A DNA stretch of 24,000 nucleotides from Clostridium saccharobutylicum DSM 13864 (lineage in GTDB: Bacteria > Bacillota > Clostridia > Clostridiales > Clostridiaceae): assembly GCF_000473995.1 (NCBI RefSeq), contig NC_022571.1, positions 2,301,416-2,325,415 on the forward strand, written 5' to 3'. The stretch's first letter is position 1. The number at the start of each line of letters is the position of its first letter. Under the pieces are notes generated by a model, which saw only the letters and a list, made by a program, of their open reading frames with translations, did no database searches and had not been told where the DNA came from. A program made the position numbers and the translations under genes. Of the stretch, positions 3,281 to 22,298 are shown piece after piece.

Positions 3281-3323
3281 TAAGTAATACGTAGTTAATT
3301 TAATATTTAAGAAGGTGGTTATA

Positions 3324-4433
3324 ATGGTACATAAGATAAGAGTATTAATAGTAGATGATTCTGCGTTAATGAGAAGAGTAATAAAAGAGATTTTGCTTAC
3401 AGATGACAAATTAGAAATTGTTGGGATAGCCAAGGATGGAGAAGATGCCATAGAAAAAGTGAGATTACTAAATCCAGATGTAGTAACAATGGACATTAAC
3501 ATGCCTGTTATGGATGGATTAACTTCTATGCAGTATATTCTTGAAGAGTTTTCAGAAGTAGCTGTTCTTATTTTAAGTTCCCTTACACAAGAAGGTGCAT
3601 TGAAGACATTTGAGGCGCTTGAGTTAGGAGCATTTGATTATGTTAGTAAGCCTTCAGGAACGGTATCTTCAAACTTATATATAGTTGGAAAAGAAATAAT
3701 AGAAAAAGTTAAAGCTGCTTACAAGTATATCCAAAAAAGAAATAGGCATCAAAGAATTATGGGGGGGAAGTCTACACTTATTGGAATTAGAAGTAATAAG
3801 AATCATAAGCAACCTATCATTGGTGAAAGAAAGGTTTCAATAAGTGACAATCTTTCAAAAGTTGTAGTAATTGGTATATCAACAGGAGGACCAAGCACGC
3901 TTATGGAGGTACTTCCACAGCTGCCAGGTGATTTAAAAGCATCTATAATAGTAGTGCAGCATATGCCGCCATCATTTACAGGTCAATTTGCTAAGCGAAT
4001 TGATTCAGCAACTGAAATTGATTTTAAGGAAGCTGAGGCAGGAGATATTATTACTAATGGAAGAGGATTTTTAGCACCAGGGGGATATCAGCTTTTAGTA
4101 AGAAGTAGCAGTCTAAAAGGTGGTAATCTGATAAGGTTGACCAAGCAGCCTCAAACTCTTTTTATGCCTTCTGTTAATATAACTATGGAATCAGTGCTTG
4201 AATGTTTCGGTCCTAAAAAAACTATAGGAGTTTTAATGACTGGAATGGGTGACGATGGCGCAGATGCAATGGTTAAAATAAAAAGAGCAGGCGGCATAAC
4301 TATAGCAGAAGATGAATCTACTGCAGTTGTATATGGGATGCCAAGGGAAGCAATAAAAAGAGGCGGAGCTGATATAGTAGTGCCTTCATATAAAATAGCA
4401 AGGGAAATAATAAAAGCAGTAAATATGAAATAA
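3324..4433 (+). CDS. cheB: CheB protein-glutamate methylesterase (receiver plus methylesterase domain)
   Basis: The N-terminal receiver has RVLIVDDSALMR and PDVVTMDINMPVMDG. The C-terminal part has VVIGISTGGP...VVQHMPP...GVLMTGMGDDGA...VVYGMPREAI. The ATG at 3324 is preferred over the GTG at 3315 because AAGGTGG (3312-3318) sits about 6 nt upstream of it. Confidence 0.93.
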   Translation: MVHKIRVLIVDDSALMRRVIKEILLTDDKLEIVGIAKDGEDAIEKVRLLNPDVVTMDINMPVMDGLTSMQYILEEFSEVAVLILSSLTQEGALKTFEALELGAFDYVSKPSGTVSSNLYIVGKEIIEKVKAAYKYIQKRNRHQRIMGGKSTLIGIRSNKNHKQPIIGERKVSISDNLSKVVVIGISTGGPSTLMEVLPQLPGDLKASIIVVQHMPPSFTGQFAKRIDSATEIDFKEAEAGDIITNGRGFLAPGGYQLLVRSSSLKGGNLIRLTKQPQTLFMPSVNITMESVLECFGPKKTIGVLMTGMGDDGADAMVKIKRAGGITIAEDESTAVVYGMPREAIKRGGADIVVPSYKIAREIIKAVNMK

Positions 4434-4459: not shown

Positions 4460-6349
4460 GTGCTGATTGAGATAGATTTTTATGAGCTTCAAGAAATGAA
4501 TGAAAGTAATATTGAATATCTTATAAATGAACTTAAAAATGAAAAAGATAAATATACTCAAGAAATAATTGCGAATAGAATTGGACAATTTAAATCTGAA
4601 TACACTGCAAATTTAGTTGGAAAAATGCTTGAAATAGAAGATACCCGTATTCGAAATACAGCTATAGAAATATTACAGGATATGGGCGAAATGTGTATTA
4701 ATACTATAAGCAAAATGGTTTATCATAATGATAAAAATGTAAGAAAATTCATATTAGATATAATAAAAGAAATAAAAACTGAGAAAAGCAGTTTAGTTGC
4801 GTTGGCTGCATTAAATGACAATGACGACAACATAGTTCAAACAGCTGTAGAAATAGTAAATTATAATAGATACATTCCTGCTATTCCTAAGTTATTAGAT
4901 ATTTTAAAAGTAACTAATAATATATGGATAATTGTTGCTTTAATCAATGCCTTTTCTACACTAGGAGAAAAATCTGCTGCACAGCATATAGAAGAGAGAT
5001 TAGATGAAATTAGTTTATCAACTTTAGAAAAAAATATTATTATTAATTATTATGTTAAGGCCCTAGGTGATATAGGTTCAATTAGGCACTTAGAGAAGAC
5101 TATGACTATATACAAGAATATGTTTCAAATTGATGATGATAATTTAGATTACTGCATTAATGGAATAGTTACTAGAAATGAAGTTGATACCTTAAGCTTA
5201 GATGTCATAAGTTTGATCCAAGAATATTATGAAGATAAAATTAATTCTAAAAATCCGAAGTTAACCTTGGATAATATTAGAACAGCAGTAAAATTAGGAT
5301 TTATATTTTCTATAGATAGTATAGAACTTTTAAAAGAATTGCTAATAAATTCTCCGAGCGAAGATTATTTTGAAGGTTTATTTGAAATAGTAGCGAATCA
5401 AAAAGATTTATCTAAAGATATTATCTCAGAGCTTATAAAGCATAATGATTCCCAAATAAACGTGTTTACTTTAAGGCTTATTAGAAGAAGGCGAATTTTA
5501 GGATTTAATGAATTTGTAAAAAGTTTTCTGATTAGTGGAATAGATACTAATATGTGCGTTGAGGCTTTAAATGTTGTTACAAGAATTGAAAGCTATTATG
5601 ATAAGGAGATTTTAAATCGATTTGTTAATTGCAATAATCATGAATTGAGTAAGATTGCAATACAAGGGATAAAGCTTGAATCAGTAAGTGATAGAGACAC
5701 TTTAATGAAGATATTTATTGGTTCTAATACTGATTTAAGAAAAATTATAGTAAAAAGGTTTATAGAAAATAGTAAATTTATAGATATTGATAAAATTATA
5801 GAAATAATTAGAGAAGCGAAAGATTCTGCCATAGTAGAGGCGTTAGAAATTTTGTTTTACATAGATAGTAAAAGGGCTGGAGAAGTTATTGATGAAACTT
5901 TAGATAATGAAGATAAAGAGATAAGAAAAAAAATAGTTAGAATAATGAAGTTAATTGGAACTGATGATGATTTCTATAAATACATGTACATTATGGCTCA
6001 AGATTGTGAAGCAGAAGTAAGAAGAGTAGTCATAAGGGAGATAAGCAAAGAAAGTAAGCATAGAGCATTTGTTTTTCTTAAGGGGCTTTTGGAAAGCGAA
6101 AACGACGTGCAAAATAAATATGAAATTATATGTAATCTTTATAAGTATAAATTTGAGGATTGTTACAAACTAATAGTTCAAAATTTAGAGAACAGTAATC
6201 TTCTCTTGAAAATTGCAGCCATTACAAGCTTAGGAGCATATGGAGATAAACGAGCAATAGAATATTTAAGTGAACTAATTAAAGATATAAATCCTGATAT
6301 CAGAGAGTGTGTACAAGAGGCGCTTTATAGATTGGAAGTGGTTAAGTGA
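4460..6349 (+). CDS. HEAT-repeat (PBS-lyase-type) protein of unknown function
   Basis: Recurrent helical-repeat motifs of the D..VR..A...L type: EDTRIRNTAIEILQDMG, NDKNVRKFILDIIKEI, DNIVQTAVEIV, EDKEIRKKIVRIMKLIG, CEAEVRRVVIREISK, NPDIRECVQEALYRL. The GTG start at 4460 is uncertain, and the in-frame ATG at 4496 is an alternative. The stop overlaps the cheR start. Confidence 0.7.
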   Translation: MLIEIDFYELQEMNESNIEYLINELKNEKDKYTQEIIANRIGQFKSEYTANLVGKMLEIEDTRIRNTAIEILQDMGEMCINTISKMVYHNDKNVRKFILDIIKEIKTEKSSLVALAALNDNDDNIVQTAVEIVNYNRYIPAIPKLLDILKVTNNIWIIVALINAFSTLGEKSAAQHIEERLDEISLSTLEKNIIINYYVKALGDIGSIRHLEKTMTIYKNMFQIDDDNLDYCINGIVTRNEVDTLSLDVISLIQEYYEDKINSKNPKLTLDNIRTAVKLGFIFSIDSIELLKELLINSPSEDYFEGLFEIVANQKDLSKDIISELIKHNDSQINVFTLRLIRRRRILGFNEFVKSFLISGIDTNMCVEALNVVTRIESYYDKEILNRFVNCNNHELSKIAIQGIKLESVSDRDTLMKIFIGSNTDLRKIIVKRFIENSKFIDIDKIIEIIREAKDSAIVEALEILFYIDSKRAGEVIDETLDNEDKEIRKKIVRIMKLIGTDDDFYKYMYIMAQDCEAEVRRVVIREISKESKHRAFVFLKGLLESENDVQNKYEIICNLYKYKFEDCYKLIVQNLENSNLLLKIAAITSLGAYGDKRAIEYLSELIKDINPDIRECVQEALYRLEVVK

Positions 6350-7188
6350 TATTATCGGAGATTTTATATGAGAAGTTTACAGAGTTCATTTATAGAAAAA
6401 CAGGATTATACTACGAGACTAATAAAAAATATTTTGTAGAAAAAAGAATTGAAAATCGCACTATTGAATTAGGTTTTTCAGATTACAAAGAATATTATAA
6501 TCTTATAAAATTCTCTGTTGATGAAACCGAATTTTATAAACTTGTTAATGATTTAACAGTTAATGAAACTTATTTTTTTCGCGATTTTCCACAACTTCAG
6601 AATTTTGCAGAAAAGGTGCTTCCAATTATAGTAAAAGAAAAGGAAAAAAATAATGATTACACCCTCAATATATGGAGCGCGGCTTGTTCTAGAGGTGATG
6701 AACCATATACTTTAGCTATAATACTAAATGAGATGTTAGATAAACCAGAAAAATGGGATATTAAGATAACGGCATCGGATATTAATGATGAAGTTCTTAA
6801 ATTTGCAAAAATAGGTGCATATGATAATAGATCAATAAAAGATGTACCACCGGAGTATCTTAATAAATACTTTGTAAAAAGAAATGAAAAATATTTAGTT
6901 AATTTGAAGATTAGGAAACCATTGGAATTTAAAAGGTTAAATTTTTTTGATTTTAGTGAAATGAAAAAAATGATAAATTATGATGTTATTTTTTGTAGAA
7001 ATGCTCTGATTTATTTTAATGACCAATCAAGAAAAACAGTAATAGATAGTTTTTATTACAGTTTAAATCCAGGAGGTTTTATATTCCTCGGTCATTCAGA
7101 GTCTATAGGAAGAATAAGTTCTGCTTTCCAAGCTAAAAGAATTGGAAGTGGAATAGTTTATTCAAAACCTTTCAGAGAGGATTTGTAA
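6346..7188 (+). CDS. cheR: CheR chemotaxis protein methyltransferase
   Basis: VNETYFFRD, NIWSAACSRGDEPYTLAIIL, ITASDIN, VIFCRNALIYFN and GGFIFLGHSES motifs. The GTG start overlaps the upstream stop (GTGA). Confidence 0.92.
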   Translation: MILSEILYEKFTEFIYRKTGLYYETNKKYFVEKRIENRTIELGFSDYKEYYNLIKFSVDETEFYKLVNDLTVNETYFFRDFPQLQNFAEKVLPIIVKEKEKNNDYTLNIWSAACSRGDEPYTLAIILNEMLDKPEKWDIKITASDINDEVLKFAKIGAYDNRSIKDVPPEYLNKYFVKRNEKYLVNLKIRKPLEFKRLNFFDFSEMKKMINYDVIFCRNALIYFNDQSRKTVIDSFYYSLNPGGFIFLGHSESIGRISSAFQAKRIGSGIVYSKPFREDL

Positions 7189-7190
7189 GT

Positions 7191-7559
7191 ATGAAAAAGA
7201 TATTGATTGTTGATGATTCAGAAATGGTTAGAAATTTTTACAGCTATATTTTAAAAGTGTTTTCCATGGAATCAGATACGGCAGAAAATGGCTTAGTTGC
7301 TTATGAAAAAATATTAGAGAGTGAATTCAGTGTTATTATTACTGATATAAATATGCCAAAAATGAATGGGTATGAATTAGTAGAAGAAATAAGAAGATTA
7401 GAAATAAAGACTCCTATAATAGTAGTATCTACTCAGGATGAGCAAAAAGAAATATTAAAAAGCATGAAAGCTGGCGCGAATATATTTCTTATTAAACCTA
7501 CAGAACCTGATAAATTTATACATACAGTTAAAGAAATCCTTAGAAAAGAGAGTGTGTAG
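7191..7559 (+). CDS. Single-domain response regulator (CheY-like receiver)
   Basis: KILIVDDSEMVR, VIITDINMPKMNGYEL, IIVVSTQ and FLIKP give the full set of receiver acidic pocket, phospho-Asp, Thr/Ser and Lys positions. It lies 2 nt after cheR and 2 nt before cheA. Confidence 0.85.
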   Translation: MKKILIVDDSEMVRNFYSYILKVFSMESDTAENGLVAYEKILESEFSVIITDINMPKMNGYELVEEIRRLEIKTPIIVVSTQDEQKEILKSMKAGANIFLIKPTEPDKFIHTVKEILRKESV

Positions 7560-9817: not shown

Positions 9818-10189
9818 ATGGATAATAAATGTAAAATTTTGATAGTAGATGATTCGCCAATGATTCATGCTTTAATAAAAAGGGCTCTAGAAAATGATGA
9901 ATTTACAATTTGTGGTTCTGGTAAAAACGGCAAGGATGGAGTAGAAAAATACAAAGAATTATCACCTGATATTGTAACAATGGATATAACGATGCCAGTT
10001 ATGGATGGTTTAGAAGCTTCAAAAGAGATAATGAGCATAAATCCAAAAGCAAAGATTGTTATGCTGAGCGCAATGGGAGATGAAGAAATAATTGAGACTG
10101 CTAACCAAATAGGCATAAATTATATAATAAAAAAACCTTTTAACAAAGAAGAACTTCTCGATGTATTAAAAAAAGTACTTGAAGACTAA
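9818..10189 (+). CDS. cheY: CheY response regulator
   Basis: KILIVDDSPMI, PDIVTMDITMPVMDGLEA, IVMLSAMG and IIKKPF. GTAGAGGG RBS upstream. Confidence 0.88.
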   Translation: MDNKCKILIVDDSPMIHALIKRALENDEFTICGSGKNGKDGVEKYKELSPDIVTMDITMPVMDGLEASKEIMSINPKAKIVMLSAMGDEEIIETANQIGINYIIKKPFNKEELLDVLKKVLED

Positions 10190-10226: not shown

Positions 10227-10712
10227 ATGAATACAAGTTTCGTGACAGCATTTACTGATAATATTATTACAACATTTATAAAAATGGCAGATATAAAATT
10301 AACTTCAGATGGTGAAGCGTATAAAGATAATAGTGATATAACTTCATTTGGTATTACGTCTATTATATCTTTTGCAGGAAAAGGCAAGGGTAGATTACTA
10401 TTAGATATAGAAACTAATTTAGCTATGAAAATAGCCAAAAACATAATGGGGGAAGATTATGATAATCCAAGGGATGATATGCTGCTTGCTACAATAGGAG
10501 AATTAAATAACACTATAACAGGTGCAGCTATTACAGATATTAATAATTCTTTTTCAGTAAGTTTAAGACTTTCTCCACCAATAGTATTTACAGGAAAGGA
10601 TGTAGTTATCGCCATACCTAAAATAAACTCTATATCTAGAATTTATACAACTGAGTATGGAAATTTAAAAATGAATATAGCTTTTGAAGGAGGTAGTTTT
10701 GATGGATGTTAA
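10227..10712 (+). CDS. CheX/CheC-family CheY-P phosphatase-like protein (copy 1)
   Basis: About 160 aa with a single CheC-family active-site-like motif, IGELNNTITGAA...LSPPIVF (E-x2-N ... P). AAGGAG RBS lies 7 nt upstream. The size fits CheX rather than two-site CheC. Confidence 0.7.
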   Translation: MNTSFVTAFTDNIITTFIKMADIKLTSDGEAYKDNSDITSFGITSIISFAGKGKGRLLLDIETNLAMKIAKNIMGEDYDNPRDDMLLATIGELNNTITGAAITDINNSFSVSLRLSPPIVFTGKDVVIAIPKINSISRIYTTEYGNLKMNIAFEGGSFDGC

Positions 10713-11163
10713 ATGTATAAATCCATTTCTAGATTCTGTAAAGAGTGTTTTAGAACAGCTGGGAATTACTGATATAAAGATGTCTGGTTTAAACAAAAAA
10801 GAAAAGATGTTTGTTGACTTAGAAATAACATCTATGATAGGTATTGTTGGAGATATAAGAGGAAATATATCATATTCAATGTCAGAGGAGAGCGCTAAAA
10901 AGGTTATTTCTATAATGATGATGGGAATGAGTATTGACAAGATAGATGAAGTTGGTAGAAGTGCAATAGGGGAGCTTACTAATATGATAACAGGTAATGC
11001 ATCTACACTCCTTTATAGCAATGGGTATTTAACTGATATTACACCACCATCAACTATTTTGGGAAAGGATATGTATTTCATTATTAGTACTGTAGAAACA
11101 ATAACTATAGAAATTGATACTTCTATAGGAAGAATAGAAGTAAACATAGGATTAGAAGTATAA
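10702..11163 (+). CDS. CheX/CheC-family CheY-P phosphatase-like protein (copy 2)
   Basis: MDVKCINPFLDSV... with IGELTNMITGNAS...ITPPSTILG. The ATG at 10702 is preferred over the TTG at 10684 because GAAGGAGG (10687-10694) lies about 8 nt upstream. It overlaps the copy 1 stop by 11 nt. Confidence 0.7.
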   Translation: MDVKCINPFLDSVKSVLEQLGITDIKMSGLNKKEKMFVDLEITSMIGIVGDIRGNISYSMSEESAKKVISIMMMGMSIDKIDEVGRSAIGELTNMITGNASTLLYSNGYLTDITPPSTILGKDMYFIISTVETITIEIDTSIGRIEVNIGLEV

Positions 11164-11262
11164 AAACAAAAGCAAAATATATAAATAATTTAATTAGAGA
11201 ATCAGATGTGATCTACTAGAAATTACATAATAAATTAAAATGATTTGGAAGGACGGAAAATA

Positions 11263-12123
11263 ATGAGCAATACTAATGAGAACGCTAAAATTATTAAAAA
11301 CAGAGAAACAATTTTAGAAAAATGGTTACTTGAATTAAACTCACACAAACTTATAGGTAGTGGAGTTTTTCAAGAAAGAGAAGTAGAAGAAATGGGAAGA
11401 AAAATTTTCAATGCTTTTCTGACTATGCTTAAGTTAAATGATGAAATAAATTGGGGGAGTAATGATCTTGTAGAAATAGGCCAGATAGTTGCAGAATTTT
11501 CTAAAAAGATGGCTACAAGAGGGCAGACTCCAACTGTAGCAACTAATTTTATTTATTCTTTAAAGAGTATTGTATTTGAATCTCTTCAAGATTATTATAG
11601 TGATTCTCAAGAACTATTAAATAAGGAAATTATTAGAATATCGGATGTTTTGGATAAAATTGGTTTACGTTCTTTTGATTATTTTGTACAAGAAAGAGAA
11701 GAAATTATTAAAGTGCAACAAGAAGATATGATGGAATTATCTACACCAGTAATAAAAATATGGGATGGGATATTAGCAGTGCCACTTATAGGGACACTAG
11801 ATAGTAAGAGGACCCAGTTGATAATGGAAAAATTGCTAGAAATGATAGTTAATACATCTTCAAAAGTTGCTATAGTAGATATCACAGGAGTTGGAACTGT
11901 AGATACTTTAGTTGCAAATCATCTAATAAAAACGGCGACAGCTACAAAGCTTATTGGTGCCGAGATAATAATTACAGGAATTAGTCCTGTAATAGCTCAA
12001 ACTATAGTTCATTTGGGTGTTGACTTATCAGGAATGATAACAAGGGCAATTATGGAGGATGGAATAAAATTAGCAATGGAAATGTGTAGTTACAAAGTAG
12101 TTAAAGCAATAAATAATATTTAA
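11263..12123 (+). CDS. rsbR: RsbR-type stressosome sensor/scaffold protein (N-terminal RsbR-type helical domain plus C-terminal STAS)
   Basis: The C-terminal STAS closely follows the RsbR pattern: STPVIKIWDGILAVPLIGTLDSKRTQLIMEKLL...VAIVDITGVGTVDTLVANHLIK...GAEIIITGISPVIAQTIVHLGVDL. Thr residues are retained at the positions phosphorylated in B. subtilis RsbRA. The ATG at 11263 is preferred over the TTG at 11245 (GGAAGGA RBS). Confidence 0.85.
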   Translation: MSNTNENAKIIKNRETILEKWLLELNSHKLIGSGVFQEREVEEMGRKIFNAFLTMLKLNDEINWGSNDLVEIGQIVAEFSKKMATRGQTPTVATNFIYSLKSIVFESLQDYYSDSQELLNKEIIRISDVLDKIGLRSFDYFVQEREEIIKVQQEDMMELSTPVIKIWDGILAVPLIGTLDSKRTQLIMEKLLEMIVNTSSKVAIVDITGVGTVDTLVANHLIKTATATKLIGAEIIITGISPVIAQTIVHLGVDLSGMITRAIMEDGIKLAMEMCSYKVVKAINNI

Positions 12124-12136
12124 ATGGAGAGTAGTC

Positions 12137-12553
12137 ATGGGAAAAATTCCAATTATAAAAATAAGAAACTTTTTGATTGTATCACTTGATGGTGATTTAA
12201 CAGATAAATCAGCTATTAAGCTGCAATCTGATATACTTAATAAGGTTTATGAAAATACAGTGAAGGGCGTTTTAATAGATATATCAATTTTGGATATGGT
12301 GGATTCATATCTAGGTAAAATTATAGCTGATATGTCAGCAATGATTAAATTATTAGGAGCAGAAACAGTTCTTGTAGGCATGAAGCCCAATGTAGCTATA
12401 ACACTTGTAGAGATGGGATTTAATATAGACGGAATTGCTACTTCAATGAATGTTGAAACTGGAATAGAAATGTTAGAGAATATAATAAAATCAAATGCAA
12501 TTCAAGAAGTTTTTTTTAATGAATTGTTGAAAGTGAGAAATGATGATATGTAA
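12137..12553 (+). CDS. rsbS: RsbS-type single STAS stressosome protein
   Basis: IPIIKIRNFLIVSLDGDLTD...VLIDISILDMVDSYLGKII...GAETVLVGMKPNVAITLVEMGF. The Ser in DMVDSY aligns with the RsbS phospho-Ser position. TGGAGAG RBS upstream. The stop overlaps the rsbT start. Confidence 0.8.
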   Translation: MGKIPIIKIRNFLIVSLDGDLTDKSAIKLQSDILNKVYENTVKGVLIDISILDMVDSYLGKIIADMSAMIKLLGAETVLVGMKPNVAITLVEMGFNIDGIATSMNVETGIEMLENIIKSNAIQEVFFNELLKVRNDDM

Positions 12554-12938
12554 TGAAATTTCTATTGAGTATGAAAAGGATATAGTTGTTGCAAGGCAAA
12601 AGGCAAGAGAAGTATCCAAAATTCTAGAGTTTGGAATTGTAGATCAAACAAGAATTATTACTGCTGTTAGTGAACTGGCAAGGAATATATTTCTATATGC
12701 ACAAAAAGGAACGGTCAAATTTCAAGAAGTTTTTGAAGATAGAAAGCACGGATTGCAAATTTCTTTTATGGATGATGGGCCTGGAATTGAAGATGTAGAA
12801 TTTGCAATGCAGGGTGGATATTCTAAAGGCCGCAGTATGGGGCTTGGAATGTCTGGAAGTAAGAGATTGATGGATGAATTTTACGTAACTTCATTATTAG
12901 GGAAGGGAACAGAGATCATAATAAAGAAATGGTTGTGA
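12540..12938 (+). CDS. rsbT: RsbT-type serine kinase / switch protein
   Basis: From memory it aligns near full length with B. subtilis RsbT: DIVVARQKAREVSKILEFGIVDQTRIITAVSELARNIFLYA...DDGPGIEDV...GLGMSGSKRLMDEF...GKGTEIIIKKWL. Confidence 0.88.
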   Translation: MMICNEISIEYEKDIVVARQKAREVSKILEFGIVDQTRIITAVSELARNIFLYAQKGTVKFQEVFEDRKHGLQISFMDDGPGIEDVEFAMQGGYSKGRSMGLGMSGSKRLMDEFYVTSLLGKGTEIIIKKWL

Positions 12939-12971: not shown

Positions 12972-14018
12972 ATGGAAATATTTGAAATAAGTAACGATTG
13001 GGATATAGGAAAAGTTAGAAGATATATAGCAGAAAAGAGCAAAGAAACAGGATTTTCTAGTATAGAAATAGGAGAAATATCCATTGTAGTTAATGAACTT
13101 TGTTCAAATTTAATAAAGCATCATTCAGTTGAAGGTAAACTAATATTTAAAAAATTAGAAATGAACGGAAGAGTTGGAATTGAAATTATAGCTGAGGATA
13201 AAGGCCCTGGAATTCTTAATGTGGATGAGGTTATAAAAGATGGAATATCTACAAAGGGGACAATGGGTGGGGGACTTGGAGCAACTAAAAGATTAATGGA
13301 CAGCTTTGAACTTTATTCTAGAACAAGTACTAATCGAGGAAAGTATATTGGATATGGACACTTGGGGGGGAATAATAGAATTGGAACTATTGTTATAACT
13401 CAGAAATGGCTTAAAAATAGCTTATATATAGGAACAAAAGAAGTTAAGATAAGTGTAATGAGTAGACCTTATATGGGATGTAAAATAAACGGAGATGTAT
13501 ATTACATTAAAGAATTTAATAATAAAGTAATTTTTGCACTTATAGATGGTTTAGGTCATGGAATAGAGGCTAACAAAGCTGCAATTAGAGCAAAAGAATT
13601 GCTAGAGGAAAATAATTATAAGTCATTAAAGGAATTGCTTTATAGTATTGATAATGGTATGAAAAATACAAGAGGTGCCGTAATTGGTGTATGTATAATT
13701 GATAAGGAGACAAAGAGATTTCAATATGGAAGTATTGGAAATGTTCAGCTAAGGTACATCTTAAATAACAAAACTAAAAAATTTATAGCTACTAATGGTA
13801 CTTTGGGTGTTTCTCTTAATACGAGAGTCAATGTACAGCAAAGCTCATATGAAAATGGAGGAATTATAGCGATGAACACAGATGGCATATCAGATAAATG
13901 GGAGTATGATGAATATTTGGATATACCAGTACATAATCCTGCGGTGCTTTCTAACATGATATTTAGAGATTTTGCAAGAGATAATGATGATGCGACTGTT
14001 TTAGTGGCAGTTATTTAG
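12972..14018 (+). CDS. rsbX: Fusion protein: RsbT/RsbW-like GHKL kinase-type N-domain plus RsbX-like PP2C (SpoIIE-type) phosphatase
   Basis: N-terminal half: IGEISIVVNELCSNLIKH...EDKGPGILNV...GGGLGATKRLMDSFE. C-terminal half: NGDVYYIKEFNNKVIFALIDGLGHGIEANKAA...TRGAVIGVCIID...YGSIGNV...AMNTDGISD...DDATVLVAVI, collinear with B. subtilis RsbX as I remember it. Confidence 0.8.
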   Translation: MEIFEISNDWDIGKVRRYIAEKSKETGFSSIEIGEISIVVNELCSNLIKHHSVEGKLIFKKLEMNGRVGIEIIAEDKGPGILNVDEVIKDGISTKGTMGGGLGATKRLMDSFELYSRTSTNRGKYIGYGHLGGNNRIGTIVITQKWLKNSLYIGTKEVKISVMSRPYMGCKINGDVYYIKEFNNKVIFALIDGLGHGIEANKAAIRAKELLEENNYKSLKELLYSIDNGMKNTRGAVIGVCIIDKETKRFQYGSIGNVQLRYILNNKTKKFIATNGTLGVSLNTRVNVQQSSYENGGIIAMNTDGISDKWEYDEYLDIPVHNPAVLSNMIFRDFARDNDDATVLVAVI

Positions 14019-14028
14019 AGGATAATTT

Positions 14029-15000
14029 ATGAGCAAAGATAGGGAATACCTGATTAGAAGAAATATTGAATTAGAAGAACAAGTTGGAGATCTAACAAAG
14101 GAACTTATTCAAACTAATCACGAAGTACTTAATATTTTACAAGCTTTTGAGGATTTGAATAAAGATATGTTGAGTAACGATAAAGAAAAAAATGAGTTTC
14201 TGACTAAACTTAAGATTTCTAACAAAGAACAGTTAGAAAAAATTAAAATGCAGGAAAATGCTTTAATCCAGGCTGATAAGTTAGCTTCCTTAGGGCAGCT
14301 TATTGCTGGAATAGCTCATGAAATCAATAATCCAAATACGTATATAAGAGCAAATATAGAACTTTTGCAAAAATATTGGAAGCTGTTAGAAAAAAAAATA
14401 AGTGTAGATGAAGGGGATTTCTGTACATCAATTGTAAGCGATGTTCCAAACATTATGACTTCCATGTATAAAGGAACAGAGAGAATAATGGAAATAATAA
14501 GTGCACTTAAAGCTTTTTCGAAAGAAGAAAAGTTATTTTATGAAAAAATAAATATAAATCAATTTATAGAGGAAGCGTACAAATTAATTAAGGTTGAATT
14601 AACAAAAAATAAGGTAATCTTGATTAATAAAGTTAATCAAGACGGATATGAAATAAATGCATCTAAGCAGAAAATAGAACAAGTTCTAATTAACCTATTT
14701 TTAAATTCGATTAAAGCAATAAAACATAAAAAAGAAGAAAATGGTCAAATTATTATATTTGCATCAGAAGATAAGGATATTCTTAATATTTCTATAAAGG
14801 ATAATGGTTGCGGAATAAATAAAGAGCATTTAGATATGATTTTTAATCCATTTTTCACTACTCACCAAGAGGATGGTGGAACTGGACTCGGATTATCTAT
14901 AGTACACGGAATTATGAAGGAACACGGGGGAAGTATTAAGGTACAGAGCAAAATAAATGAAGGTACAGAGTTCACTCTTATATTTCCTAAGGGTAGGTGA
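14029..15000 (+). CDS. Cytoplasmic histidine kinase without a recognisable sensor domain (coiled-coil N-terminus, HisKA, HATPase)
   Basis: H-box LASLGQLIAGIAHEINNPNTYI (His97). ATPase motifs QVLINLFLNSIKA, IKDNGCGI, FNPFFTT and GGTGLGLSIVHGIMKEHGGSI. Residues 1-80 are charged and heptad-like, and no TM segment is present. Confidence 0.88.
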   Translation: MSKDREYLIRRNIELEEQVGDLTKELIQTNHEVLNILQAFEDLNKDMLSNDKEKNEFLTKLKISNKEQLEKIKMQENALIQADKLASLGQLIAGIAHEINNPNTYIRANIELLQKYWKLLEKKISVDEGDFCTSIVSDVPNIMTSMYKGTERIMEIISALKAFSKEEKLFYEKININQFIEEAYKLIKVELTKNKVILINKVNQDGYEINASKQKIEQVLINLFLNSIKAIKHKKEENGQIIIFASEDKDILNISIKDNGCGINKEHLDMIFNPFFTTHQEDGGTGLGLSIVHGIMKEHGGSIKVQSKINEGTEFTLIFPKGR

Positions 15001-15006
15001 TAAAAT

Positions 15007-16431
15007 ATGAATCAAAACGAGCTTTTAGAAGTTTACTTTGAAGAGACTTGTGAAAATTTAGATGAAGCAGAAAGATGTATGATAGGTTTGGAAAAGTCAT
15101 TTTGTATGGAAGAGCTCAACAGTCTTTTTAGGTGTATTCATACAATTAAAGGTAGCTCAGCAGCTGTAGACTTTAATGAAATTTCAAGCTTAGCGCATAA
15201 ATTAGAAGATATATTAAACCATGTGCGTGATGGGGATTTAGAGTTTAATTCAGATAATTCTAATCTTTGCATTAGTTCCATAGATAAGCTTTTGGAATTA
15301 TTTAATTTTCGTAGACAGTATAGAAATGATGATATTGATTATGACATAATAAAAAATACTTTAGATATTGAAGAACGTATGGATCAGCTAATAAGTAGTG
15401 TAAGTGAAGATACAGGAGATATAGAAGATAAACAACCGATTATTATAACAAATTCTCAAAAGGAAGATAATTATAATGAAAAGTTTTATCAGACATATTT
15501 CGTTCATATACTATTTGATGTTGAAGATATGATGCAATCAATAACAAGTTTTATGATTATTAATTCAATGAATGAAAATGGGAAGATATGCTATTCATAT
15601 CCAGAAGTTGATTTTATGATATCAATGCAAATTAATGAACCAGTTAGTCATTACGAATGTCTATTTAAAACAAATCTTGATAGTGAACAATTATTTAATA
15701 AATTAGATATTCCATTTATAAAAAAAATTAAGATTATTGATGTTACTAATGCAATCTCATCAAGAGAAGAATTAACAGATTATACTGAAAAGGTATGTAT
15801 TTTATTTGCTTTATTAAATAATTTTCTATCTATAGGAAAATACTATAACAATGTTTCTTTTAGTAAAAAAGCAAAGAAGGATATAAATAATTTATATGAA
15901 AACTGTGAAAAAATTTTAGAATCGAATGAGTTTAGCGAAGAGATAGTAATGCTAATTAAAGAATTGAAATCATTTCTAGATATACCAATATACATGATTG
16001 ATAACAACTCTTGCAAGGAGTTATTTAACAGTACAAATAGTTTATATGAATGCTTGATTTATAAAATATATAATACTTTTAAGAATAAAATAATTTTTAA
16101 ATACGTTGAACTTAAACTGGACAAGCAAAATATCGAAAGATTAGATAATATATCTAGTAAGCTTAATAAAAAAATATTTAAATATGTGCTTCTTGATGTA
16201 AGTGAAGTAGAAATACTTGAAAGTGATGAGATTAAGAAATTAATTAAAGTTAATAATTCATTGGAAGAAGAAGGTATTGAACTGGTTATTATAAATGGAG
16301 GAAAATATAAAAAGAGATTATACAATATATTTGAAGCCATAGGAGACTTTGATAATATTAGGCAGTGCAATAGTGAAATAAATGCAGTTTTACTTATAAA
16401 AAATAATAAAGAAAGGTATGAGGAATTATGA
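15007..16431 (+). CDS. Protein with a CheA-P1-like HPt domain at the N-terminus and a STAS-like domain at the C-terminus. The middle roughly 250 aa is unassigned.
   Basis: N-terminus: LNSLFRCIHTIKGSSAAVDFNEISSLAHKLEDILNHVRDGDL (His45, CAT 15139-15141). C-terminus: KYVLLDVSEVEILESDEIKKLIKVNNSLEEEGIELVIINGG...LYNIFEAIGDFDNI...SEINAVL, which follows the SpoIIAA/STAS layout. GGTAGGTGA RBS upstream. The stop overlaps the next gene. Confidence 0.6.
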   Translation: MNQNELLEVYFEETCENLDEAERCMIGLEKSFCMEELNSLFRCIHTIKGSSAAVDFNEISSLAHKLEDILNHVRDGDLEFNSDNSNLCISSIDKLLELFNFRRQYRNDDIDYDIIKNTLDIEERMDQLISSVSEDTGDIEDKQPIIITNSQKEDNYNEKFYQTYFVHILFDVEDMMQSITSFMIINSMNENGKICYSYPEVDFMISMQINEPVSHYECLFKTNLDSEQLFNKLDIPFIKKIKIIDVTNAISSREELTDYTEKVCILFALLNNFLSIGKYYNNVSFSKKAKKDINNLYENCEKILESNEFSEEIVMLIKELKSFLDIPIYMIDNNSCKELFNSTNSLYECLIYKIYNTFKNKIIFKYVELKLDKQNIERLDNISSKLNKKIFKYVLLDVSEVEILESDEIKKLIKVNNSLEEEGIELVIINGGKYKKRLYNIFEAIGDFDNIRQCNSEINAVLLIKNNKERYEEL

Positions 16432-16890: not shown

Positions 16891-17118
16891 ATGACTCAGT
16901 TTGATGATGAAATATTATTAAAAGTATTAAAAACTAATGATACAGAAATGTACACATTAGCAGAAATTCATAAGATAATATTACAAAATGATATTAAATG
17001 CAGTATAGAAGAAATTAGAAAAAAAATTCATATTTTATTGTGCGATGGTTACTTGGGTTTTGAGTTAATAAGTGATGGAATTAAAATGTATTTCGTAATT
17101 TTTTCTCCTGAATATTAA
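16891..17118 (+). CDS. Hypothetical 75-aa protein
   Basis: AAGGAG RBS lies 8 nt upstream of the ATG, and it is co-directional with the operon. I recognise no motif in it. Confidence 0.45.
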   Translation: MTQFDDEILLKVLKTNDTEMYTLAEIHKIILQNDIKCSIEEIRKKIHILLCDGYLGFELISDGIKMYFVIFSPEY

Positions 17119-17318: not shown

Positions 17319-18083
17319 ATGATTAATGAACCTTTGAAATATGCAGTACTTAATAATAAAGGTGGTGTGGGAAAAAGTACAATTTCTGTACATATTGCAC
17401 ATGGACTTGCCCTTCTAGGGAATAAAGTATTGTTGATTGATATGGATGGACAAAATGATGCAAGTTTATTTCTTGGCATTTCTGATCAAGATTATAAAAA
17501 GACATTTTACGATTTGATTAACAAAAGAGAGGATGTTGAACTTTCAGAGTGCATAATTAATGTAAGGGATAATTTGGACTTACTCCCATCTAAGCACATA
17601 GACATTATAAATACAGAGTTTTATAGAGAATCAAGAATTGATTTAATACTAAAAGAAAAATTACAAGGCATAAATACCATGGAGTATAACTATCTTATTA
17701 TTGACTGTGGACCTCAACGAAGTAAAGTTAATGATGCAGTTTTATGCTTTGTTGATAACATAATAGTTCCAGTTCAGGTAGAATCAGCATCCGTTAGAGC
17801 TATTGGAAATATATATGAGTATCTATCTGACTTAAGATTGAATCCAGAGATGATAGAGTTAATAATACCTAATATGTATGATCAAAGAACAAGTGAATCT
17901 AGGGAGAACATGCAGCTGCTTAAAGAATTATTTTCAGAAAGTAATTTTTTGGCTGAACCAATCAATAGAAGAGTAAAGATTACAGAAGCAGGGAAATTAG
18001 GGAAAACCGTATATGAATATGATAAAGATTCTGCTAAACAGTTTTTTAAAATAGTTGAGAGGCTGGTAAGCACAAATGCCTAG
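17319..18083 (+). CDS. ParA/MinD-family (deviant Walker A) ATPase
   Basis: VLNNKGGVGKSTISVHIAHGLALLGNKVLLIDMDGQ (KGGxGKS with signature Lys), YNYLIIDCGP (Walker B-like). TAGGAGG RBS upstream. The 3' end overlaps the next gene by 8 nt. Confidence 0.88.
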   Translation: MINEPLKYAVLNNKGGVGKSTISVHIAHGLALLGNKVLLIDMDGQNDASLFLGISDQDYKKTFYDLINKREDVELSECIINVRDNLDLLPSKHIDIINTEFYRESRIDLILKEKLQGINTMEYNYLIIDCGPQRSKVNDAVLCFVDNIIVPVQVESASVRAIGNIYEYLSDLRLNPEMIELIIPNMYDQRTSESRENMQLLKELFSESNFLAEPINRRVKITEAGKLGKTVYEYDKDSAKQFFKIVERLVSTNA

Positions 18084-19881
18084 AAGTAAGGTAAATAAAG
18101 AGGTATTAAACAGTATTGATAAGATAAAACAGGAAATTAATAAAAAGAAACAAAAGGCTATAGAATCACATAATTCCAATGAATTTATACTTGAAAAAGA
18201 TAAGTTAAGTAATGATAATTTAGAGTTGTCCAATAATAAAAGTATTGATAAAGTCAATATTAATATTGGTGAAGGAAAAAAAGACATCAATAAAGCAATC
18301 AAAAGTACAAAGAAAGTACATAAAGCTGCCAATAAAGAAACTAAAAGTGCTAGTAAAAGAACTAAAAGTGTGGCAAAAAAGTGTGAAAGTGTAGATGAAA
18401 AAAATAAAAATAGTAGTGAAAATGCAGATAAAAGGCAAGGCGATGAAACCAAGTATGTAATTTTTGTGGTGAACAATGAAGAATATGCAATAGAATTAGT
18501 TAATGTAAAAGAGATAATTAGGATACCAAAAATTAAGAAAGTACCTAATTCTGTTTATGTTGAAGGAGTATTTAATTTAAGAGGGGAACTTGTTACTATA
18601 ATTGATATTCATAAGAGATATAACATATCTAAAAGTGAATATAAAGATAATAGCAGAGTCATAGTTATGGAATTTGGCGGCTGTATTGTAGGCATTATTG
18701 TTGATAAAGTTTTACAGGTGTTAGCTGTTCATAAATCATATATAAAATTAATATGTGAAAATACTGATGATACGAAGGAAGGCTATATTGATGGCATTAT
18801 AATGATTGAAAATGGAAAAAGATTAATTATGATTATGGATGCACAAAGTATCATAAATATAAATGGTCTTGGAAGTATTTTAGTCAATGCATATAAAAAA
18901 TCAAATGAAAAAGTATCAGCTTTTATTAAGGATATTGAAGAAAATGAGCAGCTAATAATTTTTAGTATAAATGATGTTGAGTATGCATTTCATATATCCG
19001 AAATAAAGGAAGTTATTAGAATTCCAAATGTTGTAAAGGTACCAAATTCTTCGGATTTTATAGAAGGTATTATTTCATTAAGAAATGAACTCATTGGAGT
19101 AGTAAACCTTGCTAAAATTATAAATATAGATAGTGAAAGTATCAGCAAAGACCGAAGCATACTCATAGTTAATACAGGAAATTTAATATATGGAGTAATT
19201 GTTGATAAAGTTTCAGAAGTAAAATTGGTTTCAAAAAAAGATTTATTAAAGCCATGGCAAGTTGTTGGAAATATTGATGTTAAAATAGTGAAAGAATTTG
19301 CTAATATGGATAATGGTAAAAGAGTAGTTACAATATTGGATCCATATAATATTTTAAATCTTGAGGAAATACAATGGAATTTTAAGGTTAATGAAATCAC
19401 TGAAATTGTTTCAAATAATTATAATAAATCTACATTAGATTTAAAAAAAATAATAAAAAGTATTGTGATTTTTAAAATAGAAAATGAAGAATATGGAATT
19501 AGTATTGATTTTGTTCAAGAAATTAATACAATTAATAAAATTACAAGCTTCCCTAATAGACAAAATGCTGTTGAAGGATTAATAAATTTAAGAGGAGATA
19601 TGATTCCATTAATTAATTTACGAACATTGTTTGGTTTAGAAATTCAGAGTAAAGATTCTTATTTCAAAACTTTAATTGTAAAAATAAATAATAAGAAAGT
19701 AGGAATTCGCATTGATTCAGCATCAGAAGTTCTAAACCTTTCAGAGGATATATTTCAAGATTATTTTGAAGATTTAAATGCAGATAATAATAGAAGATAT
19801 GTAGAGGGAATTATAAAGCCGAATGATGGTAAACGAATTATTCTTTATCTTAACATAAATGAAATTTTAGATTTTATATAA
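18076..19881 (+). CDS. Protein with a roughly 125-aa Lys-rich N-terminal tail followed by three CheW domains
   Basis: Tail: MPRSKVNKEVLNSIDKIKQEINKKKQKAIE...KSTKKVHKAANKETKSASKRTKSVAKK. CheW cores: YVIFVVNNEEYAIELVNVKEIIRI...VEGVFNLRGELVTIID; LIIFSINDVEYAFHISEIKEVIRI...IEGIISLRNELIGVVN; IVIFKIENEEYGISIDFVQEINTI...VEGLINLRGDMIPLIN. Confidence 0.85.
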   Translation: MPRSKVNKEVLNSIDKIKQEINKKKQKAIESHNSNEFILEKDKLSNDNLELSNNKSIDKVNINIGEGKKDINKAIKSTKKVHKAANKETKSASKRTKSVAKKCESVDEKNKNSSENADKRQGDETKYVIFVVNNEEYAIELVNVKEIIRIPKIKKVPNSVYVEGVFNLRGELVTIIDIHKRYNISKSEYKDNSRVIVMEFGGCIVGIIVDKVLQVLAVHKSYIKLICENTDDTKEGYIDGIIMIENGKRLIMIMDAQSIININGLGSILVNAYKKSNEKVSAFIKDIEENEQLIIFSINDVEYAFHISEIKEVIRIPNVVKVPNSSDFIEGIISLRNELIGVVNLAKIINIDSESISKDRSILIVNTGNLIYGVIVDKVSEVKLVSKKDLLKPWQVVGNIDVKIVKEFANMDNGKRVVTILDPYNILNLEEIQWNFKVNEITEIVSNNYNKSTLDLKKIIKSIVIFKIENEEYGISIDFVQEINTINKITSFPNRQNAVEGLINLRGDMIPLINLRTLFGLEIQSKDSYFKTLIVKINNKKVGIRIDSASEVLNLSEDIFQDYFEDLNADNNRRYVEGIIKPNDGKRIILYLNINEILDFI

Positions 19882-20128: not shown

Positions 20129-20482
20129 ATGAAAAAAGTTTTGATTGTTGATGATGCAGTTTATATGAGACTTTCTTTAAGGGACATATTAGAAAGAAAT
20201 GGATTTGAAGTTATAGGGGATGCGGTAAATGGAATAGATGCTATTAATAAATATAAAATGTTAATCCCAGACATTGTAACTATGGATATAACAATGCCAG
20301 AAATGGATGGAGTTAAAGCATTACAGGAAATAAAAAAGTTAGATCCAAATGCTAAGGTAGTAATAATATCTGCAATGGGTCAAGAATCTATTGTTAGAGA
20401 AGCAATAATGAATGGTGCTAAAGGATTTATAATAAAACCTTTTAAAGAAGAAAAAGTTATTCAGTCATTAAGTAAGATATAG
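20129..20482 (+). CDS. cheY: CheY response regulator
   Basis: KVLIVDDAVYMR, PDIVTMDITMPEMDGVKA, VVIISAMG and FIIKPF. GAGGAG RBS upstream. Confidence 0.9.
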   Translation: MKKVLIVDDAVYMRLSLRDILERNGFEVIGDAVNGIDAINKYKMLIPDIVTMDITMPEMDGVKALQEIKKLDPNAKVVIISAMGQESIVREAIMNGAKGFIIKPFKEEKVIQSLSKI

Positions 20483-20792: not shown

Positions 20793-22298
20793 GGGGATGT
20801 AGCTAGATTTGTGTAAAACAAATCTACTACATTCTTTTTTTGTATTGTTTGATGGTAGATTTGGAATAATATACTTGAAAATAATAAGGGAGGATTCCAA
20901 ATGAAAGTACCAGATATTAATTATCAAGAAGAAATTAAAAAGTGTAAAAGCATGGATGATGTTGTAGGTAAGAATGGATTGATGCAAAAGCTATTAAAAG
21001 ATGTTATGCAACAATTGCTTGAAGCGGAAATGGATGAACATTTAGGCAGAGAGAAGTATGAAAGAGCCGATAACGAAAGTGAAAAGAATTATCGAAATGG
21101 TTATTCTAAAAAAGATGTTAGAAGTAGTTACGGGGAGGTACCTTTAGATATTCCACGAGACAGAAAATCAGAGTTTGAGCCAAGAGCAATTCGAAAGTAT
21201 GAAACAGAATGTAGTGAACTGGATAAAAAAATAATTGGTTTGTATGCACGTGGAATGTCTACAAGAGATATTCAATCCGAACTCGAAGAGCTCTATGGTA
21301 TAGATGTCTCTCCATCAATGATATCGAAAATAACAGATAAAGTGATGGACGCAGCAGCAGAATGGCAAAACAGAATGTTAGACCCAGTATATCCTATAGT
21401 ATATATGGATGCGGTTCATTTTAAGGTAAGAGATGAACATAGAATTGTTTCTAAAGCAGCATATATTTGTATGGGAGTTGATATGAATGGCTATAAAGAT
21501 ATTTTAGGAATTTGGATAGGCGAAGCTGAAGGTGCAAAATTTTGGTTAAGTGTATGCAATGATTTAAATAATCGTGGCGTTAAAGACATCTTAATTGCAT
21601 GTATGGATGGATTAAGAGGCTTACCAGACGCAATTAGAGCTGTTTTTCCAAAGGTATGTATTCAAAATTGTATAATACATCAAATAAGAAATTCGATAAA
21701 ATATGTCTCTTATAAAAACAGAAAAGAATTTATGAAAGATTTGAAGCTTGTTTATAAAGCAGATACAGAGGAAATTGCGCTAGCGCAGCTCGATGAGTTG
21801 AAGAAAAAATGGGATAATCTTTATGATTCTGTAGTGGATTCATGGTATGAAAACTGGGATAAATTATCTACATATTTTTCTTATACTAAAGAAATTAGAA
21901 AGATGATTTATACTACCAATACACTTGAAGGTTTTAATAGGCAACTAAGAAAATTCACTAAGATTAGAACTGTATTTCCAACTGATGATTCATTACGAAA
22001 GTCATTGTATTTAGCAACAGATCAAGTTATGAAAAAATGGACTTCACCACTTCCAAACTGGGGTGTTACACTTTTAAAATTTGAAATAATGTTTAAAGAA
22101 AGAATCAACGAAGCGTTAGCTGTATAGTTTGTCCATTTTATGAAATTATGCATATATTATCTTTTTTGGCACAAACTAAAAATATAATAATATCCAGTTT
22201 TAGTATTTCAAAAGAAAGATAAAAATATAACTGGAAATAAAATTTCCAGTTATATAACATATCAAATATTCAATTTACACAAGTTATTCTACATTCTC
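20793..22298 (+). mobile_element. IS256-family insertion sequence, apparently intact (1506 bp)
   Basis: It has a single transposase ORF. The imperfect terminal inverted repeats are GGGGATGTAGCTAGATTTGTGTAAAA (20793-20818) and the reverse complement of 22273-22298 (GAGAATGTAGAATAACTTGTGTAAAT), matching at 18 of 26 positions. It is flanked by an identical 8-bp direct repeat, GGTAGTAA. Confidence 0.85.
20901..22127 (+). CDS. IS256-family (Mutator-type) transposase
   Basis: 408 aa. LLEAEMDEHLGREKYER...NYRNGYSKK...IIGLYARGMSTRDI...YPIVYMDAVHFKVR...LIACMDGLRGLP...IQNCIIHQIRNS...YTTNTLEGFNRQLRK are family-typical blocks. GGGAGG RBS upstream. Confidence 0.93.
   Translation: MKVPDINYQEEIKKCKSMDDVVGKNGLMQKLLKDVMQQLLEAEMDEHLGREKYERADNESEKNYRNGYSKKDVRSSYGEVPLDIPRDRKSEFEPRAIRKYETECSELDKKIIGLYARGMSTRDIQSELEELYGIDVSPSMISKITDKVMDAAAEWQNRMLDPVYPIVYMDAVHFKVRDEHRIVSKAAYICMGVDMNGYKDILGIWIGEAEGAKFWLSVCNDLNNRGVKDILIACMDGLRGLPDAIRAVFPKVCIQNCIIHQIRNSIKYVSYKNRKEFMKDLKLVYKADTEEIALAQLDELKKKWDNLYDSVVDSWYENWDKLSTYFSYTKEIRKMIYTTNTLEGFNRQLRKFTKIRTVFPTDDSLRKSLYLATDQVMKKWTSPLPNWGVTLLKFEIMFKERINEALAV

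Follow-up and report, generated by a model that had tools for sequence, protein, structure and literature searches.

A kinase-less CheA relative ending in a STAS domain and its neighboring receiver gene in a chemosensory cluster of Clostridium

Introduction

Several described systems come close to the subject of this work, a gene at positions 15007-16431 of a 24,000-nucleotide stretch of the Clostridium saccharobutylicum DSM 13864 genome (contig NC_022571.1, positions 2,301,416 to 2,325,415; hereinafter the window), whose product (hereinafter T) joins the P1 and P2 domains of CheA to a helical region and a STAS domain. One of these is the P1-P2 arm of CheA of the Thermotoga maritima and Bacillus type, which has the P1 fold, the His/Lys/His/Glu quartet and the P2 fold in common with T. 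However, T lacks the P3, P4 and P5 domains of CheA, having four family-specific helices and the STAS domain instead, and is encoded beside a complete CheA that itself has no P2. In Rhodobacter sphaeroides, CheA3 is a separate P1 protein that is phosphorylated in trans in the CheA3/CheA4 system; this pairing of a kinase-less P1 protein with a separate kinase is comparable to what we propose below for T (PMC3591291). The R. sphaeroides cytoplasmic cluster further includes the ParA-like PpfA, just as the window codes for a soluble methyl-accepting chemotaxis protein (MCP) and a ParA. The two systems differ in that CheA3 has a P5 and neither P2 nor STAS, whereas T has no CheW-like domain for entry into an array, and in that CheA4 lacks P1, whereas the window CheA has two.

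The remaining precedents involve STAS proteins. The stressosome of Vibrio vulnificus has a two-component output (VvD1/VvD2; PMC10014275), and there, as in the window, a block of RsbRST and phosphatase genes is followed by a histidine kinase. In contrast to V. vulnificus, the window block lies inside a Che cluster, has no receiver of its own, stands beside the genes for T and its neighboring receiver (RR3), and has a fusion of an RsbT-like domain to a PP2C phosphatase in the position of RsbX. In Pseudomonas aeruginosa, a histidine phosphorelay is reported to feed a STAS partner switch via HptB, HsbR and HsbA (PMC5085249, PMC6482189). This cascade distributes Hpt, receiver-PP2C-kinase and STAS over three proteins, the last of which is switched by serine phosphorylation; in T, the Hpt and STAS domains share one polypeptide and the equivalent site is mostly Glu across the family. 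Finally, the RsbR paralogues and YtvA have a helical region directly before the STAS domain, as does T, whose full-length model weakly matches RsbR (7b0u) and YtvA (2mwg) in Foldseek searches. Unlike these, T shows no similarity to the RsbR N-domain, its STAS domain is not of the stressosome type, and most members of its family are without RsbS or RsbT.

Each domain of T is well known, while their joining in one protein, and the constant position of that protein in a Che cluster, are undescribed in the searchable literature. A preliminary description of this DNA had not recognized the HPt-STAS architecture as a known one, and we likewise find no description of either a P1-P2-helical-STAS or a REC-STAS protein in that literature. 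Nor does it hold a paper on a stressosome inside a Che cluster, although Pane-Farre 2005, in which RsbRST output modules were first surveyed, falls outside it and may mention one.

Domain architecture of T

The T gene is an intact open reading frame (ORF) of 474 amino acid codons, with a Shine-Dalgarno-like AGGTGA 7 nt upstream of its start and the four nucleotides ATGA shared between its 3′ end and the start of the RR3 gene. Its product is 100% identical to a database protein of C. saccharobutylicum labeled variously as ‘Hpt domain-containing protein’, ‘CheA’ and ‘chemotaxis protein histidine kinase’. The label ‘CheA’ is wrong: T is a kinase-less CheA relative of P1-P2-helical-STAS architecture (Table 1). 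In the full-length AlphaFold model (predicted local distance difference test, pLDDT, 72.6), a five-helix P1 is succeeded by an α/β P2, four helices over residues 253-358 and alternating β/α elements over residues 365-473; the inter-domain arrangement in this model is unreliable, with a predicted template-modeling score (pTM) of 0.38. Its Foldseek matches sort into P1, P2 and STAS structures.

The P1 domain is recognized by the Pfam Hpt model over residues 5-86 (E 7e-13; 49.1 bits against a cut-off of 24.6) and superimposes on the structures 1i5n and 3kyi with template-modeling (TM) scores of 0.82-0.87 in Foldseek. The predicted phospho-acceptor, His45, aligns with the phospho-accepting His48 of Escherichia coli CheA P1 and lies in an H(S/T)IKG motif, followed by Lys at +3, His at +19 and Glu at +22. 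This quartet of His45, Lys48, His64 and Glu67, whose residue numbers are also those of T. maritima CheA, is invariant in 26 diverse members of the T family, and its spacing equals that in both P1 domains of the window CheA. The P2 domain is likewise detected by Pfam (residues 164-243; E 1.1e-11; 45 bits against a cut-off of 23) and by Foldseek against T. maritima P2 (1u0s_A; TM-score 0.83), from which a receiver-docking role is predicted.

Beyond P2, the resemblance to CheA ends. Pfam finds no match to P3, P4 or P5 in T, even at E up to 10, and no CheW-like domain, while the NCBIfam CheA models cover just the N-terminal 120-210 residues with scores far under their cut-offs. The four-helix region has no Pfam match and no relation by hhalign to CheA P1-P5 or the RsbR N-domain, the probability against P3, P4 and P5 being <1%; no column of it is invariant among the 26 diverse members.

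We also considered that T might be a degraded CheA. This was rejected, as the full-length layout is kept in 35 sequence clusters with conserved neighbors.

The preliminary description had read the N-terminus as a CheA-P1-type HPt domain with His45, tentatively placed a P2 at about residues 160-200, taken the last 110 or so residues to be STAS-like and located the gene between a sensor-less kinase and a receiver that it overlaps. The Pfam and structural matches bear out both N-terminal assignments, and Pfam together with transmembrane prediction confirms the nature of the two neighbors; the C-terminal fold is likewise supported by the evidence that follows.

The STAS domain and its phospho-site

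The STAS domain of T is divergent enough to fall below the Pfam threshold as a single sequence (PF01740, residues 380-446; 17.8 bits against a cut-off of 22.6, E 0.003), the isolated C-terminal domain scoring 20.5 bits; NCBIfam returns faint sulP and SpoIIAA matches for the same end. When the C-terminal 110-120 residues of 12 close homologues are searched alone, STAS is the top Pfam match in 11 (best E 4.8e-5); across the diverse members, just 3/26 have a match at E ≤0.01. Against PDB sequences, the top three matches of a C-terminal domain profile are two SpoIIAA entries and the STAS domain of a plant SULTR. AlphaFold modeling of residues 356-474 by themselves gives a pLDDT of 79 and a pTM of 0.74, and the top ~30 Foldseek matches of this model are nearly all STAS structures (TM-scores 0.6-0.72), including anti-sigma antagonists, RsbS, RsbR, YtvA and SLC26/SulP proteins. 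Among the window proteins, hmmsearch with the T STAS profile detects RsbS weakly and nothing else; hhalign gives a probability of 6% for the profile against RsbS, with a single sequence as the template.

HMMER aligns Ser406 of T (in ILESDE) with the phosphorylated Ser58 of SpoIIAA, which is also the position of RsbS Ser59. Across 39 members of the T family this site is Glu in 25, Ser in 4, Thr in 3 and another residue in 7. Even in loci that carry stressosome genes it can be Glu (locus L120) or Pro (locus L092). Since the site varies and is Glu in most members, the sequences indicate that the T-family STAS domain is not a conserved Ser-phosphorylated switch and that the window protein's Ser406 is specific to its lineage; the majority Glu resembles a phosphomimetic. 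The only conserved residues of the domain are Asp397, which is invariant, and Arg437, present in ≥90% of the 26 members.

A catalytic (phosphatase) role of the helical-STAS region was considered but not adopted as the principal idea, as the helical region is unconserved and the STAS domain offers just these two residues.

The RsbR and RsbS proteins of the window both match the STAS part of the NCBIfam YtvA_fam model (E 8e-23 and 6e-13), whereas T has no match to this part. The absence of this stressosome-type signature from T and its presence in both RsbR and RsbS argues against the suggestion of the preliminary description that the T STAS domain enters the RsbR/RsbS scaffold.

The T family and its chemosensory context

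A word-based sequence search recovered 12 full-length relatives of T, all from Clostridium, and a search of genome contigs with P1 peptide patterns returned mostly ordinary CheA genes along with 3 full-length T relatives, the species group of the window not being among its results. An exhaustive HMMER search of 1.84 billion proteins with a helical-plus-STAS profile extends the family to at least 35 representatives (50% identity clusters) at E <1e-3. Most representatives are 440-493 residues long and have the same layout with the helical-STAS region at the C-terminus. The Hpt domain is present in 26/26 full-length members and a P2 is detectable by Pfam in 19/26.

Gene contexts were collected by locus look-ups and by a metagenome scan with a STAS-region profile, which gave 29 loci, the metagenome loci being annotated by phmmer with the window proteins. 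Across these, T and an RR3-type receiver occur side by side, in either order, within one type of Che cluster, the adjacency holding in essentially all loci. The order of this cluster is MCP, triple CheW, CheB, [T, RR3], (HEAT), CheR, (CheY), CheA, ParA, triple CheW. In 19 loci the T/RR3 pair lies between CheB and CheR-CheA and has Che genes as its immediate neighbors, Rsb and histidine kinase genes being absent. RR3 is the better conserved partner, its identity to the window protein across species being 61-74% versus 40-45% for T. In every locus annotated with Pfam the CheA is without P2, making T the sole source of a P2 in the cluster. Thus, T and RR3 are a two-gene unit that is a regular component of one kind of cytoplasmic chemosensory cluster, and the 19 loci without Rsb genes imply that the STAS domain predates the stressosome association described below and does not need it.

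Receiver RR3 and domain fusions

RR3 is a receiver with a likely phospho-acceptor at Asp55 (read by eye) and a conserved C-terminal tail, DYSIQKLERWRESI. Its link to T is reinforced by three kinds of fusion. Two proteins (P0133 and P0137) have the order P1-P2-helical-STAS-REC, with the same REC tail as the window RR3. In a second arrangement (locus L109, 4992-6074), a receiver of the RR3 type is fused directly to helical-STAS in the absence of P1 and P2, and the cluster has no separate T. A third, seen in two samples (L097, 8411-10366, and L098), is a CheB-P2-helical-STAS protein without P1. The helical-STAS region survives the loss of P1 and the joint loss of P1 and P2, which makes it the family's constant core, one linked to RR3. 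It follows the receiver directly in L109, where a response regulator would usually have its effector domain. Hence, the most probable role of helical-STAS is that of an output or docking module that binds proteins, under the control of RR3 rather than of Ser phosphorylation.

The stressosome block

In three lineages, the T/RR3 pair is abutted by a block of RsbR-RsbS-RsbT-(RsbT-like-PP2C)-HK genes, where HK is the soluble kinase that precedes T in the window. These are the window together with C. diolis (L088), a distant metagenome-assembled genome (L092) and L120. The block always abuts the pair, as HK-T-RR3 or HK-RR3-T, and never has a receiver of its own. Its surroundings differ: CheX-[block]-T-RR3-ParA in the window, CheB-[block]-T-RR3-HEAT in L092 and CheB-[block]-RR3-T-HEAT in L120. 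This recurrence beside the pair in three lineages with differing gene orders argues for a functional connection in them. HK and T are separated by 6 nt in the window, L088, L092 and L004, and in L091 a PAS-HK adjoins T. In the Clostridium sp. N3C lineage HK is kept alone (L004); the genes upstream are housekeeping genes, and no Rsb gene lies within 10 kb. The C. magnum and C. thailandense loci have neither the stressosome block nor HK. Therefore, the block is an accessory cassette that a minority of lineages have attached to the T/RR3 node. The stressosome neighborhood is not the reason for the STAS domain, and this corrects a tempting over-reading of the window.

HK itself consists of an N-terminal coiled coil of ~85 residues, with no sensor domain or transmembrane segment, and a kinase core that is closest to AtoS/ZraS in NCBIfam; its H-box is normal (AHEINNP, His97; motif and number read by eye). 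The RR3 receiver is closest to that of AtoC in the same database.

The preliminary description saw in T a possible bridge between phosphorelay and stressosome. The part of this that holds is the fusion of a P1 to a STAS domain and the position of the Rsb block beside T in three lineages. The direct route through the STAS domain fares less well, given the 19 Rsb-free loci and the Glu at the phospho-site of 25/39 members, and HK offers a simpler link to the stressosome.

Some further observations concern these loci. The RsbT-like-PP2C fusion stands where stressosome loci normally have RsbX, and it does so in L088, L092 and L120 as well as in the window. A metagenome contig (L004) of 99.7-99.9% identity to the assembly of Clostridium sp. 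N3C (L007) has an additional 5.5 kb that run from the C-terminus of CheW via CheB, CheR and CheA to HK; their absence from the assembly reflects either a genuine deletion or an error of assembly. In C. magnum and C. thailandense (L001 1-2061, L003 1-2373), a different partner-switching set lies directly upstream of the orthologous Che cluster and comprises a Rec-PP2C protein, an RsbW-like kinase, a helix-turn-helix protein, a STAS protein and a stand-alone Hpt.

Proposed mechanism and its alternatives

We propose a model to which we give about even credence and in which CheA, T and RR3 form a phosphorelay with helical-STAS under its control. The P4 domain of the cluster CheA would phosphorylate His45 of T in trans while the P2 domain of T holds RR3; the phosphoryl group would then move from His45 to RR3, probably to Asp55, and RR3 would govern the helical-STAS module. 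In the stressosome-bearing lineages, stress would free RsbT to act on the sensor-less HK, and HK would phosphorylate the same RR3, which could thereby integrate chemoreceptor and stressosome inputs. The His45 step is modeled on CheA and on the P1 of CheA3, which is phosphorylated in trans, and the path from stressosome via HK to RR3 on stressosomes with a two-component output. The AtoS/ZraS-like affinity of HK and the AtoC-like affinity of RR3 are weakly compatible with such a pairing. If correct, the model implies a chemosensory pathway with a STAS protein-binding output that is run through a dedicated receiver, and a stressosome plugged into a chemotaxis-like pathway in a few solvent-producing Clostridium lineages.

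Several points weigh against this model. With two P1 domains in the window CheA itself, T is not required as its substrate and might act as a phosphate sink or competitor instead. RR3 is NtrC/AtoC-like in NCBIfam rather than CheY-like, and we infer its binding to P2 from adjacency and fusions alone, just as gene order is the sole ground for its pairing with HK. The fusion proteins come from metagenome contigs, the CheB-P2-helical-STAS form being seen in two samples. As for the input to HK, a search of its first 90 residues for an RsbU_N-like RsbT-binding domain gave only noise.

Other arrangements of the same parts are conceivable. T could be a scaffold that gathers P1 as donor, P2 as dock, RR3 as switch and STAS as effector, with the binding of a partner to helical-STAS switched by Asp-phosphorylated RR3 in place of Ser phosphorylation, and with RsbT or the RsbT-like-PP2C fusion as one such partner where a stressosome is present. 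We regard this as rather unlikely; if true, it would make T a partner switch driven by a Che phosphorelay and, in the stressosome-bearing lineages, a single protein on which chemosensory and stress states are read together. Somewhat less probable still is that the STAS domain has RsbT or the RsbT-like part of the PP2C fusion as its direct docking site, or joins the RsbR/RsbS scaffold, and so physically couples phosphorelay and stressosome. The pairing of a STAS domain with a GHKL kinase is the archetypal STAS interaction, as in SpoIIAA-SpoIIAB, RsbV-RsbW and RsbS-RsbT, the window T has Ser406 exactly at the position of SpoIIAA Ser58 and RsbS Ser59, and the Rsb block abuts T/RR3 in three lineages and three gene orders. 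Yet Rsb genes are absent beside the pair in 19 loci and within 10 kb of it in the N3C lineage, where housekeeping genes lie upstream, and Ser gives way to Glu in 25 of the 39 members and to Glu and Pro in two of the stressosome-bearing loci themselves. The whole-model Foldseek match of the helical region plus STAS to Listeria RsbR, which spans 219 columns, might be read in the same favor, but its alignment has a root-mean-square deviation of 21 Å and T lacks the stressosome-type signature common to the window RsbR and RsbS. The other partner-switching set just upstream of the cluster in C. magnum and C. thailandense is a further point for docking.

With a similarly low probability, T could modulate RR3 as a phosphate sink, by back-transfer from phosphorylated RR3 to His45, or in a phosphatase-like manner, with helical-STAS speeding dephosphorylation. 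The P1 domains of CheA itself favor this, as do the several receivers and two CheX phosphatases of the cluster, which indicate that its phosphate flow is clearly tuned, and CheA3 sets a precedent of a P1 protein with phosphatase activity in a non-kinase region (PMC3591291). However, the REC-helical-STAS and CheB-P2-helical-STAS proteins do without P1, so that a P1 sink is not the core function, and the poverty of conserved residues outlined above makes a shared catalytic site unlikely. The least probable of these readings is that HK and T together constitute a split histidine kinase, in which the STAS domain docks on the GHKL domain of HK or on CheA P4 and presents P1 to it, taking the place of the covalent tether of CheA. 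STAS domains classically bind GHKL ATPases, and HK adjoins T at the 6-nt spacing noted above, with the PAS-HK of L091 as a variation on this; on the other side, HK retains a phospho-acceptor in its normal H-box and HisKA domain, most family members lack a nearby HK, and phosphorylated SpoIIAA suggests by analogy that a Glu at the Ser58 position would disfavor canonical GHKL binding.

Other genes of the window cluster

All genes of the window cluster are on the + strand (Table 1).

Table 1. Genes of the window cluster and domains of T, with positions in the window
Feature	Position	Strand	Basis
Soluble MCP, no predicted transmembrane segment	37-1737	+	
Triple-CheW protein	1756-3225	+	
CheB	3315-4433	+	
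HEAT-repeat protein	4460-6349	+	
CheR	6346-7188	+	
CheY	7191-7559	+	
CheA: two P1 (His52, His219), P3, P4, P5, no P2	7562-9799	+	
CheY	9818-10189	+	
Two tandem CheX genes	10227-10712, 10684-11163	+	
RsbR	11245-12123	+	Pfam RsbRD_N+STAS; NCBIfam YtvA_fam STAS region
RsbS	12137-12553	+	Pfam STAS; NCBIfam YtvA_fam STAS region
RsbT	12540-12938	+	Pfam HATPase_c; NCBIfam spIIAB
RsbT/RsbW-like GHKL-PP2C fusion	12972-14018	+	Pfam HATPase_c_2 + SpoIIE; NCBIfam spIIAB, spore_II_E
Soluble HisKA+HATPase_c kinase (HK)	14029-15000	+	Pfam
T, P1-P2-helical-STAS, 474 aa	15007-16431	+	Pfam, AlphaFold, Foldseek, homologues
P1 (CheA-type HPt), aa 1-133	15007-15405	+	Pfam Hpt, Foldseek, conservation
His45 codon, predicted phospho-acceptor	15139-15141	+	Codon checked
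P2 receiver-docking domain (predicted), aa 160-245	15484-15741	+	Pfam P2, Foldseek
Four-helix region, aa 253-358, family-specific	15763-16080	+	AlphaFold secondary structure
Divergent STAS-fold domain, aa 360-470	16084-16416	+	Pfam, profile search, AlphaFold, Foldseek
Ser406 codon, aligned with SpoIIAA Ser58	16222-16224	+	Codon checked
Receiver RR3, 137 aa	16428-16841	+	Pfam Response_reg E 7e-28
Conserved unannotated 75-aa ORF	16891-17118	+	Homologues in related loci
ParA-like ATPase	17319-18083	+	
Second triple-CheW protein	18076-19881	+	
CheY	20129-20482	+	
Mutator-family transposase	20901-22127	+	

The short ORF that follows RR3 has no NCBIfam match and shows the motif TLAEIHK...DGYLG; its homologues occur in at least 10 loci with Che clusters of this type. 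The soluble MCP, the ParA-like ATPase and the triple-CheW proteins suggest a cytoplasmic array with ParA-type positioning, as in R. sphaeroides. The second P1 domain of CheA has a 12-residue insertion ahead of its His/Glu pair. Related loci likewise have a CheA with two P1 domains and no P2. The 29-nt overlap of the two CheX genes hinges on a TTG start of the second and is perhaps a start-codon artefact; the two genes abut in C. diolis. Directly after the last CheY of the cluster comes the Mutator-family transposase.

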